Shown: one piece after another, positions 58,970-64,000 of the stretch
Position numbering within the stretch: position 1 is the first letter of the stretch
Layout: the number at the start of each line of letters is the position of its first letter
Source: Opitutales bacterium
GTDB lineage: Bacteria > Verrucomicrobiota > Verrucomicrobiia > Opitutales > JABSRG01
DNA length: 64,000 nt
Assembly: GCA_049599475.1 (NCBI GenBank)
Contig: JBMYOQ010000005.1
Location: 74,883 to 138,882 of the forward strand
Direction of reading: 5' to 3'
The notes under the pieces: model-generated
Told to the model about the DNA's origin: nothing
The model's input: only the letters and a program-made list of their open reading frames with translations
Database searches by the model: none
Made by a program: the position numbers and the translations under genes

Positions 58970-60295
58970 TTATTCCTCCCAAGGCTCCTTCTTGGCGCTT
59001 GCTCGGGCTTCCACGATAGCCGGGCAAAAATCGGTGTATTTATCCCGTATCCTATCGGCTAGCCGCGCCTCAATGTAATAACCATTATCCTCGATGCGCT
59101 CGGAGATGATCCCACCCTCGCGGTAAAGCTGAGAAACCAAATCATAGCGGCTGTGCGGGATCACGAGTTGCATTTCTTCGAAACCAGCGGCGATCATATC
59201 CAGCATGCGATCCTGAAGGATGTCTAGGCCCAGCTTCTCGGCAGCTGAGATAAATACAGCCTCGGGATATTTCGCCTTTAGGCCGTTGATCAGGGTGGGG
59301 TCATCGACTGCGTCGATTTTGTTGAAAGCAATGATGGTGCGCTTGTGTTGTGCTCCTAATTCGAGCAGCACCTTCTGAGTTGTCTCAAAATGCTGTTCGA
59401 AATCGGGGTTGCTGATATCGACGACGTGGACGAGGAAATCGGAAATGATAGACTCCTCGAGGGTCGCCTTAAAAGCCTCGACCAAGCGGTGAGGAAGTCG
59501 GCGCACGAATCCTACTGTGTCGGTGAGCACGATTGTTTGCCCGTTGTGCAGCTTGGCACGACGCGAAGTGGGATCCAGCGTCGCAAACAGTTTATCTTCG
59601 GCGAGGACCTCGGCACCCGTGATCGCGTTCAACAGGCTCGATTTTCCTGCATTAGTATAGCCTACGAAAGCGCCTGAAGGCACAGGTTTCTTCAAGCGTT
59701 GCTTGCGCTGGGTTTCCCGCTGTTTGACAACGCTTGTGAGCTCTTTTTTGAGCCTCGAGATGTTCTCACGTACCATCCGTTGGTCGAGCTCGAGCTGCGT
59801 CTCACCAGCGTCCCGCTGAGTTGAACCCCCGCCGCGTTGACGGCTCAAGTGCGTCCACGCTCGCTGCAGGCGAGGCAGGTTATACTCGGCTCGAGCCAAT
59901 TCTACCTGCAGCACTGCCTCACGCGTCTGCGCGCGCAGATTAAAAATGTCCAAAATGATCTCCTGACGATCGATCACCGCGATCTTCTCAGCCTGGGCTT
60001 CCCAATTGCGCTGCTGGCTCGGGGTGAGTTCGTTGTCGAAAATGATCACATCGCACTTTTTGGCTTTGGCCAGACCAATGATCTCCTCCGTCTTGCCAGT
60101 GCCCAACAAAAGCTTCGGATGGTGCTCGCGAGCCTTCACGAGTTCCTTGTGGGCAATCCCGATGCCCAGAGTCTCCACGAGCTCCTCCAGCTCGTCCAAA
60201 AGCTGCTCACCAAGTTCCATAGACTCACGCGGAAACACCGCACCGACCAGCAGCGCGCGCTCCACCATCTTAGGCTTCTCCTTGACTTCAAGCAT
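58970..60295 (-). CDS. hflX: Ribosome-splitting GTPase HflX
   Basis: ELTPSQQRN, LQVELA, GETQLELD, GYTNAGKS, LFATLDPT, DTVGF, NKID. Confidence 0.96.
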   Translation of the reverse strand: MLEVKEKPKMVERALLVGAVFPRESMELGEQLLDELEELVETLGIGIAHKELVKAREHHPKLLLGTGKTEEIIGLAKAKKCDVIIFDNELTPSQQRNWEAQAEKIAVIDRQEIILDIFNLRAQTREAVLQVELARAEYNLPRLQRAWTHLSRQRGGGSTQRDAGETQLELDQRMVRENISRLKKELTSVVKQRETQRKQRLKKPVPSGAFVGYTNAGKSSLLNAITGAEVLAEDKLFATLDPTSRRAKLHNGQTIVLTDTVGFVRRLPHRLVEAFKATLEESIISDFLVHVVDISNPDFEQHFETTQKVLLELGAQHKRTIIAFNKIDAVDDPTLINGLKAKYPEAVFISAAEKLGLDILQDRMLDMIAAGFEEMQLVIPHSRYDLVSQLYREGGIISERIEDNGYYIEARLADRIRDKYTDFCPAIVEARASAKKEPWEE

Positions 60296-60539
60296 CCGAT
60301 CATTGAACCGCGTCCACCAATCTTTTCAATGCTTGAATTTTTGGGAAAGAGTTCAGCCATCTATTTCGTCGTTCCGTGGACTTGAAATTTCGGTTCACTC
60401 CTGCGTTTCAAACTTACACTCGATTATAGGCAGCGGATGGTGTCTCGAGCGTACTGGCCTGTTGCTATGTCTTGGTTTGTCGAGTTATTGCAAGCTGTGA
60501 TGTTGCCTTGATATCGCTGGTTTTGCAAGGTGTTGCCTG

Positions 60540-62852
60540 ATGCGGTTTTTTTCTGGTTCGATAGTTATTGGGTTAGTTGTTCTTGGAGTTATATTTGGGG
60601 CTTTGGTTTGGGTCTGGAATGGGGCGTGCCGCGGGGGAACTTTAGGGGTAGATGTGGAAACGACCACTTCTGTGGAAAAGACGAAAGGCAATCTGGAGCC
60701 TCAGCCTCGCCTCGGTGAAGTTTGGAGCAAATATGAGGAAGCGTTTGCACGCCGAGGGGCTTTCGAGCGTCAGAAAACGATAGTTCTCAGCGTTGCTGAG
60801 ACGCCTCCGGCGTATTTTGATGACATCTTCGAGAGATTAAGTTTGGAAATAGATGATGAAACCCCGACGATGCAACACGCTGAGATGGCGCGAGGGCTAT
60901 TGGTTGATCGATGGGCTGTGGAGGATCCTGAAACAGCGTTTGAGTGGGTTCTAGATGCCTACAAACGGGTAGCTGCACATCGAATAGATCTCTTTTCTCG
61001 TGACGTGCAATCGGCTAGGTTTGATGTTGCGGCCCGTTTTATGAATGAATTCATAGCGCAGGATCCTACGTCTGCGTTTATCAGAATTCAGGAATTAACG
61101 CAGGCTGAGAGCACTCGGTTTGGGGCGTTTATGGCTGCGGTGATCGGGGACCCTTCTAGTGTTCAGGGAGATATATCGGAAATATATGAAGGCTTGAAAA
61201 ACGTGAACCCAGCGGTAGCCCAGCAGTTGGGTATTTGGGTCTTTAGAGAGAAATTGAATCTCGGGTTGAAGCCTGCAATTGAATTTCTTGCAGAAAATTC
61301 GGATGCAGAGTTCTACGGTTTGAATCCAATGAATCGATACGGAGAGATGGGTCATTGGGAGAAAATGAAAGCACTTGTGATAGAGTCTCCAGAGGAGACT
61401 TTAACTGTGCTTAAACAGTTGGACGATGAACAGTTGCGAACTGGCTTCGGAAGGCACATCTTGAGAATATTCGAATCTGCGAATGACCTCGAATCTGTGG
61501 AAAATTTAGCCCTCTTGTTTTTACAGCGTAGTTTCAAGAACATACACGAATACTCCGGGGTGTCGGATCCGTTTGCCCCGCCTTCCCGTTATTCACAAGG
61601 ATCGAAGGAGTTGGTCAGAGAAACAGTCAAAATTGTATCCGCTATCGATGTTGACCGGGCATTGCACTTGGCGGACTTAGTCGATGACCCCATTTTTGCT
61701 GATGATATTCGTGGAGAGGTGGCGACGTTTCTAGCAAAGACAGATCCGGAAAGAGCAATGGGGATTTGCCTTGGCTTGGATGATCAGGTGGGAAGCCGTT
61801 ATCTTGGGAGTGTCGTGAGCGAGTTTATGTTATCGTCTCCTGATAGCGCCGGTGAAATTTTGGATCAGTTTGATCCTGCTGGCTGGGCCCTCGATCAGCA
61901 GAGCACTGTTCTGAATACTCTCTGGGCGATCGATTACATGGATGCTATCGATTTCTTGAACGATACTGAATTTCATCCGGAGCTCCGTTCAACGATTGAA
62001 AGGAAATTGCATGATTTTGTCGCGGATGGAAAATTTGAAGAATATGCGAGGGTGATCGAAGCGTTACCTCCAATGAATTTGGATGATTCATTTCGTGACC
62101 AAAATTTTGCAAGAAAATGGGCACATTCAGATTTCGAAGCTGCTTTGGGCTATGTTTTGCATTTGCCCCTGGGAGAACGTCGAAGTCGACTCGTTGAGCA
62201 GCTCGTCCAGGTTCATGCGCGAAAGCCACAGAACTCTCTACCTGAATTAGCTTATGAATCTGAAGAATTCATGAAAGCATATAAAATGAATAACATGTAT
62301 TCTGATATTAAGTTGAATCCGATTAAAGCGATCGAAACTTGGGGTGAGGAAAAGGTAGTCGCTGTTTGGGCCTCTCGCGATCCAAGTGCAGCATATGAAT
62401 ACTTGGATAATATAGACGACCCAGGAATGCGCGCTGTAGTGATAGATAGATTTGCAAATTCTGGGGCATCTTCAGCAAATTTTAGTGAAATTTCCTCAAT
62501 TCTGGACACGCTTCCAAACTCTAGTGAAAAAGAGACCGCTGTTCGAAACTTAGCGGATCGGTGGGCAGCAACCAACCCGTCGATGGTTGCTGAATGGGTC
62601 GACGCTATGCCCGCCAGCGATGCAAAGGACTCTGCTATATATGCTTTGACTGAGCATTTGGTAGAGCATGACTATGAATTGGCTTTTGATTGGAGCATGG
62701 GGATTGGAAATGATGATCGGAGGGCTTGGATCTCCGAATCAATCGTGAGTAAGTTTGCGAAAGCTGACCCCTCGGGTGCTCGGGAGATGGTTGAGGCTTA
62801 TCGTATGGATTTTGAAGAGCGGAAGCAGCTTTTGGAGGCCATAGGTGAATAG
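60540..62852 (+). CDS. Membrane-anchored helical-repeat hypothetical protein
   Basis: N-terminal TM; recurring W/F-A-x-x-D/N-P-x-x-A units (WAVEDPETA, WASRDPSAA, WAATNP, FAKADPSGA). Confidence 0.7.
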   Translation: MRFFSGSIVIGLVVLGVIFGALVWVWNGACRGGTLGVDVETTTSVEKTKGNLEPQPRLGEVWSKYEEAFARRGAFERQKTIVLSVAETPPAYFDDIFERLSLEIDDETPTMQHAEMARGLLVDRWAVEDPETAFEWVLDAYKRVAAHRIDLFSRDVQSARFDVAARFMNEFIAQDPTSAFIRIQELTQAESTRFGAFMAAVIGDPSSVQGDISEIYEGLKNVNPAVAQQLGIWVFREKLNLGLKPAIEFLAENSDAEFYGLNPMNRYGEMGHWEKMKALVIESPEETLTVLKQLDDEQLRTGFGRHILRIFESANDLESVENLALLFLQRSFKNIHEYSGVSDPFAPPSRYSQGSKELVRETVKIVSAIDVDRALHLADLVDDPIFADDIRGEVATFLAKTDPERAMGICLGLDDQVGSRYLGSVVSEFMLSSPDSAGEILDQFDPAGWALDQQSTVLNTLWAIDYMDAIDFLNDTEFHPELRSTIERKLHDFVADGKFEEYARVIEALPPMNLDDSFRDQNFARKWAHSDFEAALGYVLHLPLGERRSRLVEQLVQVHARKPQNSLPELAYESEEFMKAYKMNNMYSDIKLNPIKAIETWGEEKVVAVWASRDPSAAYEYLDNIDDPGMRAVVIDRFANSGASSANFSEISSILDTLPNSSEKETAVRNLADRWAATNPSMVAEWVDAMPASDAKDSAIYALTEHLVEHDYELAFDWSMGIGNDDRRAWISESIVSKFAKADPSGAREMVEAYRMDFEERKQLLEAIGE

Positions 62853-63022
62853 CCTTATGAATTTTCGGCTCCGCATTCGGTAATTGCGATAGACCCTATC
62901 GCCATTGTTTCCGAAACATACTAAAATACGAAGCCGCGTTACTCCCCGAAGTCAAAGCACGGAAATGAACCGAAGCTATTCGGGCCAAACTGCCGCGATA
63001 ACCCTAGCAACCAATCTCGACG

Positions 63023-63260
63023 AAAGTGTCCGTATAACGGGAAAAATCCCCCAAAAACGGACAACAAAAACCTCAACCACACGCCCCAAAAACCAAAAAA
63101 GTGTCGCATAAAAGGAAAAATCCCCATTATCAGGACACCCTAAAAAGTGTCGCTTTTTGGGAATTCAATCTGATAAGTTTCACCCATGAACCCGCATCAT
63201 TACTCAAAACCCACGAAAACCCATTTCCCAAAAACGGACACAAAGTGTCTTATATAGGAC
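63023..63260. repeat. Array of AAAGTGTC and GGAC(A) boxes upstream of the cassette array
   Basis: AAAGTGTC at 63023, 63098, 63144 and 63242, each answered downstream by an inverted GGAC(A); units 1 and 2 also share GGAAAAATCCCC. Confidence 0.7.
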
Positions 63261-63268
63261 TGTTGTGC
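63242..63268 (+). other. Putative integron attI-type recombination site, crossover G|TT at 63262/63263
   Basis: GTTGTGC (63262-63268) is the exact reverse complement of the R'' box GCACAAC of the downstream attC; no attC-style arm seen upstream. Confidence 0.6.
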
Positions 63269-63948
63269 GAAAGATGAAAAATATATTCAGTCTGGGTTTA
63301 TTACTGCTCGTATGTTTGATGTCCGGTTGTATTTCTGGTTTGAGTAAGGTTTCGATGACTGATGGATATCTAGTCAGTTTCGAAGAACTTGATTCATATG
63401 ATGGTGATGGTGGTAGCCTTAGCACTGTATGGTATCTTGGTAGTGATGAAAAATACCATTATTTCAATCATCTCGCAAAGATCAGCACAAAGTATAAGGT
63501 CTATAAGGAGGAGCTTATGGTTCCGGTCGAATTCCCTGTTGGTAGTCAGAGGAGTGTTTATGTTTTATTCGAAGAGCTTGATGGAGTAAGACAGGCAGTG
63601 AGCGGTGCTCCCATTGGAGGGCCTCTGCGGTATGCTCCTTTAGATCTTGAGTAAGTAGCGCCAGGTTTAATGAAATTTCGCGGAGGCAAATAGTACCTGA
63701 TCGTTGAAAGAGAAGAGCTTAGGTTCTGAAAAGGCCCAGTGTAAGAGTTGATATTATGGGAGGATGCTAGGCTTAGATTCAGCAGAGGGTCCTCGGTTGG
63801 GATGCGTTCGTGGGGCAAGTCAAAGAGGCACAACAAGTCGGGAGAGGTGACGTCGATATCTGCCGCGTGGTTAACTGTTTTGGGCAGGGGATAAGGCGTT
63901 TGGTTGCAAGTCGCATTTTTCTTCCATCGCCGCCACCTCCCCTATACG
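63263..63948 (+). mobile_element. Integron gene cassette 1 (686 bp) carrying a lipoprotein gene
   Basis: Bounded by G|TTGTGC and G|TTCAAG; ATG 11 nt after the crossover; AT-rich ORF; ends in attC. Confidence 0.75.
63274..63654 (+). CDS. Hypothetical lipoprotein (cassette cargo)
   Basis: MKNIFSLGLLLLVCLMSGC lipoprotein signal with lipobox-like MSGC; no family recognised. Confidence 0.7.
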   Translation: MKNIFSLGLLLLVCLMSGCISGLSKVSMTDGYLVSFEELDSYDGDGGSLSTVWYLGSDEKYHYFNHLAKISTKYKVYKEELMVPVEFPVGSQRSVYVLFEELDGVRQAVSGAPIGGPLRYAPLDLE

Positions 63949-63954
63949 TTCAAG
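63828..63954 (+). other. Integron attC site (127 bp)
   Basis: R'' GCACAAC, 5-nt spacer AAGTC, arm GGG[A]GAGGTGACGTCGAT pairing with ATCGCCGCCACCTCCCC (15/17 plus one extrahelical base), 5-nt spacer TATAC, R' GTTCAAG. Confidence 0.8.
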
Positions 63955-64000
63955 TAGAGATAAATAAATTGATGGTTTGTCGGGTAGATCCAGTTGGGAG
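63949..64000 (+). mobile_element. Start of a second gene cassette (truncated by the window edge)
   Basis: Follows the attC crossover; R' tail (TTCAAG) does not match the cassette-1 R'', as expected if it belongs to the next cassette; possible ATG at 63972 open to the edge. Confidence 0.5.

Follow-up and report, generated by a model that had tools for sequence, protein, structure and literature searches.

Which enzyme, if any, loads an integron cassette array that opens with an attI-like head but has no integrase gene beside it? In the standard picture there is one attI per integrase, and arrays without an integrase are leftovers or donors; clusters of attC sites lacking a neighbouring intI (CALINs) are more abundant than intI-bearing integrons. 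We analysed an integrase-less array at the end of contig C5 of an Opitutales bacterium (GCA_049599475.1; 4.68 Mb in 146 contigs, 96.6% complete, 0.04% contamination). The window, a stretch of 64,000 nucleotides, is the last 64 kb of this contig, which terminates at 64000. Sequence comparisons made it probable that the locus is a satellite attI platform loaded in trans by the integrase (IntI) encoded on another contig, C120. The satellite would be a copy of the attI head of the single chromosomal integron, lodged between hflX and the HAD/mlaEFD genes and heading an array of its own.

Cassette 1, its attC site and the attI head

The preliminary description, made from the DNA letters alone, had recognised a complete attC site and the footprint of a circular cassette; the attC architecture, the complementarity of the R'' box and all coordinates proved correct (Table 1). 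The site at 63828-63954 is an imperfect palindrome in the order R''-spacer-L''...L'-spacer-R', with an extrahelical base and a G|TT crossover. The motif GTTGTGC at 63262, 12 nt ahead of the ATG at 63274, is the exact reverse complement of the R'' box GCACAAC, that is, the start of cassette 1 is complementary to its own R'', as a cassette circle leaves it. Exact R'/R'' complementarity was found in 7/7 closable cassettes of the three arrays of this genome. A leave-one-out HMM built from six other attC sites of the genome detected the 127-bp site with E = 2.6e-12 genome-wide; it replaces covariance model R1, which was trained including the window's attC and whose score there is circular. The bottom-strand fold of the site gave z = -1.8. 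A generic attC scan returned 13 matches in the genome vs 5 in a shuffled genome, so attC architecture and folding by themselves are modest evidence. These results confirmed that 63828-63954 is a true attC and that cassette 1 is seated at an attI-type G|TT; excision of cassette 1 by IntI as a 686-bp circle is predicted.

Table 1 Features of the C5 locus (positions in the window)
Feature	Position	Strand	Remarks
hflX	58970..60295	-	left chromosomal anchor of the insert; TIGR03156 over cut-off
770-aa protein gene	60540..62852	+	absent from the site in G001; no attC, hence not a cassette; single copy in genome
5' extension of head	62888..63026	+	~140 bp; common to the integrase-less heads on C5 and C77
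intI-attI intergenic head copy	63027..63264	+	238 bp; probable promoter and accessory-site region; 92% copy
AAAGTGTC repeats in head	63023, 63098, 63144, 63242		four copies
attI core	63245..63264	+	crossover G|TT between 63262 and 63263
Cassette 1	63263..63948	+	predicted 686-bp circle; contig depth 22.2 = single copy
Cassette 1 gene	63274..63654	+	126 aa; lipoprotein-like signal LMSGC (by eye)
attC of cassette 1	63828..63954	+	127 bp; belongs to the genome's 127-128-bp attC family; aligned with six other sites
R'' GCACAAC	63828-34		followed by 5-nt spacer AAGTC
L'' GGGAGAGG	63840-47		pairs 7/7 with L' CCTCCCC (63936-42), A at position 4 (63843) bulged out
R' GTTCAAG	63948-54		preceded by 5-nt spacer TATAC after L'
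Cassette 2 start	63949..64000	+	cut by contig end; depth 40 vs 22.4 for the chromosome (run X1)

The 126-aa product of cassette 1 matched no family in Pfam or NCBIfam, its gene had no paralogue elsewhere in the genome, and no protein-level relative of it was found at the loci of the relatives G001 or G003. Comparison of the other cassettes of this genome with the same loci gave two protein-level relatives, of genes on contigs C39 and C55. In Rfam the window produced three chance-level matches only.

The head ahead of cassette 1 duplicates the DNA that separates intI from the first cassette on C120, the predicted attI. Over 63027-63264 it was identical at 214 of 233 positions both to C120:6526-6759 and to a third copy on C77, which heads another integrase-less array; the C77 and C120 heads matched each other at 229/233. 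The 20-mer attI core occurred exactly three times in the genome, with no further occurrence at up to 3 mismatches (<=3). Homology among the three heads stopped at G|TT, where a different first cassette began at each. This bears on the possibility that the cassettes entered a secondary genomic site (attG) and so formed a SALIN or small CALIN. According to the accessible text of 10.1101/2022.09.11.507474, IntI also places cassettes away from its own gene by attG insertion, which is efficient in E. coli and is proposed as a source of SALINs, but attG and attI sites are unlike in both sequence and structure. The C5 insertion site, by comparison, is a 238-bp, 92% copy of the cognate attI region and not an unrelated site, and this head homology refutes attG insertion here.

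The 5' extension at 62888-63026 was identical to C77 at 109/134 positions and to C120 at 44/133, and is absent from the intI-linked head; no other long copy of it was found in the genome. It was rejected as a dispersed repeat, having two short look-alikes only, and as an intI remnant, there being no tblastn match and no match to C120. A sigma-70 consensus scan of the head gave two 9/12 matches vs 0.7 expected, and found no promoter above chance. The intI-linked heads of relatives end in a similar ACTG|TT or CTTG|TT. The head of this genome, searched in 60 relatives, gave a single marginal match of 37 nt, so heads are lineage-specific. A dispersed short palindromic repeat was observed at C115:79-2566 (tandem units of ~190 bp), C57:9662-9689 and C77:13431-13468, and one copy of it lies directly upstream of the C77 head.

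One integrase gene and the insertion site

A genome search returned a single IntI over the TIGR02249 cut-off (G000:C120:5184-6110, 349 bits vs a cut-off of 265). The protein aligned with VchIntIA (2A3V; E = 2.3e-63) over ~300 residues and in this alignment keeps the catalytic R, K, H-x-x-R, H and Y as well as the IntI-specific insertion; it has an extra N-terminal region of ~125 aa. Its gene heads an ordinary array of at least 4 cassettes. The earlier statement that no integrase lies beside the C5 head was borne out. None of the genome's 6 PF00589 matches is on C5, 14 IntI queries detected no intI remnant there, and neither C5 nor C55 has a PF00589 or IntI-like match that would place intI next to attI. 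IntI searched in the genome-contig collection gave 0 matches. The proposal that the array head is served by an integrase elsewhere is supported, the sole IntI being on C120 and the head being a copy of its attI region.

The upstream context was likewise confirmed, with a 409-bp gap ahead of cassette 1, preceded by the 770-aa ORF and then hflX. The 770-aa protein matched no family in Pfam or NCBIfam; its nearest Atlas clusters are unnamed Verrucomicrobiota proteins, and it has an N-terminal hydrophobic stretch. Gene content at the locus differed in a relative: in the sister species G001 the site is empty, with hflX ~270 bp from the HAD hydrolase and mlaEFD genes and no insert. The G001 spacer maps in two pieces, to 60255-60347 of the window and to C55:3316-3487, so the insert consists of the 770-aa gene, the head and the array. 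One full attC was found on C5, and two weak attC matches on C55, the probable far end, at positions 1138 and 2461; an IS end and cassette-like genes whose attCs are decayed lie within C55:1-3300.

No intI was found in C55:1-3487, which disfavours the earlier suggestion of an integrase at the far end of the array; a gap of unassembled DNA remains between C5 and C55, within the insert. It is very unlikely that a second intI lies in this gap or that a rearrangement split the array from its integrase. The assembly, with its 146 contigs, a gap after 64000 and an IS of ~30 copies that ends many contigs, gives room for either event. However, intI is normally the neighbour of attI, whereas the 409 bp of head on C5 come after an unrelated gene; a complete head is still present in the intI-linked array, which makes the C5 head a copy and not a moved half; and four closed single-intI genomes have the same layout.

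The IS has TG...CA ends and internal repeats, occurs at 58 contig termini and interrupts arrays; we take it to be IS21-like. Target-site duplications gave no join of C55, C77 and C39 across the IS. Behind an IS end, C39:1-3600 (L017) carries cassette-like genes with decayed attCs and is probably the distal portion of the array on either C77 or C120. On C77, an IS4/IS5-type transposase lies inside cassette 4, and the product of cassette 3 (C77:15749-17548; L015:4750-6549) is a NACHT NTPase of 599 aa that weakly resembles the anti-phage models DS8 and EruA, far below cut-off, which makes cassette 3 a candidate defence cassette.

Cassette sharing and read depth

The 53 available nt of cassette 2 were identical (53/53) to the first nucleotides of cassette 4 in the intI-linked array (C120:8802-8854), and the sharing between C5 and C120 rests on these 53 assembled nt. 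This stretch is common to both contigs, which explains why both break there. The shared cassette start stands behind a different attC in each array, and one attC family spans all three arrays of the genome. As the heads are 8% apart but the cassette start is identical behind different attCs, cassette traffic came later than head copying. A cassette common to two arrays does not give the direction of transfer, and it could also have been excised from the satellite, a step for which the satellite attI need not work.

No attC-like site with CTTGAAC, the R'' predicted for cassette 2, was present among the 20 CTTGAACAA[GA] matches listed from the assembly, in which C5 ends at 64000, and cassette 2 or the head searched in metagenome contigs gave 0 matches. 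In sequencing run X1, loose ends at 63832 and 63947-63951 showed the attC joined to different sequence on either side, and another attC preceded a variant of cassette 2. From these loose ends, further cassettes exist outside the assembly.

Read depth in run X1 was 22.4 for the chromosome, 73.1 for the piece common to all heads, 40.9 for the C77/C120-type head and 22.2 for the C5 head with cassette 1; this run may be the source sample, so it tests stoichiometry and not independence. Because the depths are ~3x, 2x and 1x, the three head copies share one genome. The idea that assembly or binning merged strains or neighbours with different arrays draws on the metagenomic origin of the contigs and on the break of both C5 and C120 at the same 53 nt, but it is largely refuted by several results. 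A 30-kb contig of run X1 leads from hflX into the head at a depth of 22.4, the depths rise by whole multiples, contamination is low, a C77-type head together with the flank proper to it was seen in a second study (at loose ends 62888 and 62927), and the layout recurs in closed genomes. In run X2, of depth ~3, the flanks were covered and cassette 1 (63346-63858) was not, a hole that was not counted as evidence; runs X3 and X4 contributed no sequence.

In the mechanism that we propose, IntI from the C120 gene would diffuse and excise cassettes (attC x attC), and the circles would insert at the G|TT of any cognate attI copy (attC bottom strand x attI). The cell would gain several first positions instead of one, and cassettes would move between loci. 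Less firmly, the head would also carry the cassette promoter, and a whole integron would have been duplicated, lost its intI and then been copied further. The accessible literature states that IntI recombines the folded attC bottom strand with double-stranded attI at G|TT (PMC8946536, PMC4889954), that attI sites are matched to their own integrase (PMC8946536), and that laboratory assays routinely supply IntI in trans to attI sites carried by a different replicon (PMC9668308).

Satellite heads in relatives and known systems

In the order, 94 of 351 genomes (including the present one) carried an IntI at E <= 1e-85. From these relatives 14 were hand-picked, not at random, for closeness or for few contigs and a single intI, G001 being included although its IntI scores below cut-off, and each was searched with its own DNA between intI and the first cassette. 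Integrase-less copies of the attI head were found in 10 of these 14 and in 4/5 closed single-contig genomes; judged by such copies, putative satellite attI platforms are common among the relatives tested. G001 has 3 copies of its own head (69-95%), and G003 has 17 head matches on 14 contigs, equal to 16 satellites. Distant head copies were also present in G186, G212, G314, G259, G244, G226, G027 and G054. In G212 and G226 the BLAST match covered 46 and 22 internal bases, with an attI core and a concordant cassette just downstream by eye. No extra head copy was found in G004, G262, G129 and G059 by this own-head search, which could miss very short copies.

The 17 head matches of G003 comprise 13 that terminate in G|TT, two that do so in G|AT, a degenerate one and the intI-linked head, which a contig end truncates; two G003 heads checked by eye were closed by a matching attC. 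Degenerate copies occur at G001:C213, G003:C76 and at 0.99 Mb in G244. Cassettes starting at G|AT were also found in G259 (L152), G212 (L161) and G226 (L157), and in G259 and G212 such a start is closed by an ATC-type R'' instead of GTT/AAC. The view that a G|AT core is a 'broken' site was rejected as a rule given these pairs, and non-canonical crossover triplets seem to be tolerated in this order.

Cassette sharing between main and satellite arrays was also seen in relatives. In closed G314, intI and the satellite are 1.2 Mb apart and only ~25 nt of head are common to the two arrays, but the first cassette of the satellite is 99.4% identical over 505 nt to the first-position cassette of the main array. 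That main array (L153:1688-3141) opens with three tandem copies of this 0.49-kb cassette; the satellite has one. Sharing reached 92% over 194 nt in G027 and 92% over 370 nt in G186.

For the origin of the satellite heads, we searched the DNA around each of them for intI remnants, mostly 1.5 kb a side and less at contig ends. The G054 satellite adjoins an internally deleted intI (aa 1-75 plus 398-444), intI 3' remnants lie beside 2/16 G003 satellites, and a 15-aa N-terminal remnant lies at one of the two satellites in G027. No remnant was found at the satellites of the present genome (2), G001 (3), G186, G212, G226, G244, G259 and G314. The remnants in G054, G003 and G027 show one route to satellites, in which an integron is duplicated and its intI then lost, and the C5 satellite was probably born in this way. 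The 5' extension is present in satellites and absent from the intI-linked head in the present genome, G001 and G003, and this common extension suggests further copying from satellite to satellite. Ectopic recombination, IS activity or IntI itself may make the copies.

The same remnants are what one would expect of a duplicated integron that was loaded while intI was still adjacent and whose head is now inert, at most a cassette donor. The decayed distal attCs on C55 fit such a frozen array, and intI loss is a listed route to CALINs in the accessible part of PMC4889954. Nevertheless, this history is unlikely for C5. All three copies in the genome keep the attI core without a single change while the rest of the head drifted by 8%, the C5 locus has no trace of intI, the cassette common to C5 and C120 is younger than the head divergence, and G314 has its 99.4% identical cassette in first place at both main and satellite sites. 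The preliminary description had offered an array that lost intI and kept its insertion platform as an alternative to service from elsewhere; as the likely origin this part stands, given the remnants in three relatives, but it is not an alternative to service in trans. The three satellites of G001 may be frozen: its only IntI (C319, L074:345-1472) seems to have lost the first catalytic box within an in-frame internal gap of ~70 residues.

A bolder extension of the satellite reading, which we consider doubtful, is that the attI heads form a self-spreading family which one integrase both serves and multiplies. Tandem attI x attI, or attI x attC, recombination would release head-bearing circles, and these would re-insert into arrays and new loci. 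The 5' extension common to satellites of the present genome, G001 and G003 would fit this. In G003, with its 16 satellites, there are tandem heads within arrays on three contigs, and on C60 and C66 a head-bearing element of 500-600 bp starts directly after a cassette R'' box; attI x attI recombination is documented in the accessible text of PMC8946536. If this distributed integron were real, many CALINs would be live capture points, missed since attI is not generically searchable. At G003 loci L086, L090, L092, L114 and L115, heads were observed inside a mosaic non-coding repeat of 500-600 bp, which can begin just behind the R'' box of a cassette and pieces of which also occur headless.

Compared with known systems, the C5 array agrees with the complete sedentary chromosomal integron on C120 in its attI, attC family, cassette footprints and polarity, but lacks the intI that stands beside attI in such an integron. 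Neither a complete integron nor an attG insertion, it would go by the name of SALIN or CALIN, the latter having at least two attC sites with no intI nearby. The accessible texts of PMC4889954 and 10.1101/2022.09.11.507474 describe CALINs and SALINs as attC sites without neighbouring intI, as at C5, report that half of CALINs are in replicons encoding an IntI, and propose mobilisation in trans. There CALINs are treated as cassette donors or remnants, whereas the C5 array keeps its cognate attI and could be a recipient. Cury et al. list four CALIN origins and state that attI cannot be searched for, the attI option of IntegronFinder being exact class 1-3 matches (PMC4889954, as far as accessible). 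The accessible portion of PMC3607928 states that there is only one attI per integron; we counted three heads per integrase in the present genome and as many as 17 in one relative. Alteromonas (PMC4119200) has three arrays and one integrase, and its main text as available, supplements aside, describes no attI copy at the integrase-less regions. In Xanthomonas (10.1101/2025.06.18.660453), deleted or decayed intI genes occur with arrays in place, and CALINs at conserved second loci; attI was sought only via the IntegronFinder option, and the portion available describes no dispersed cognate attI copies. No description of such copies was found in the accessible full-text literature, to which subscription papers mostly do not belong, and a prior description is possible.

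The chemistry would be ordinary integron chemistry, and the cargo at C5 is one small protein without a known family. If spare attI copies work in trans, new cassettes could be captured and expressed without older ones being displaced from a single promoter, and some CALINs would be active recipients. The own-head search is cheap and general, and makes the origin and liveness of CALINs directly testable.

Two further observations concern integrases of relatives. In G006 (G006:C5:80591-87952), of the same family, intI lies in pieces ~6 kb apart, with stop codons. By eye, a lineage-specific inverted repeat stands near the intI start in heads L014, L150, L153, L156 and L157, and its motif seems to recur beside attI in L014, L150, L153 and L156; the IntIs of all five loci carry an extra N-terminal region of ~120 aa. 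The head inverted repeats are possibly co-evolving accessory binding sites.
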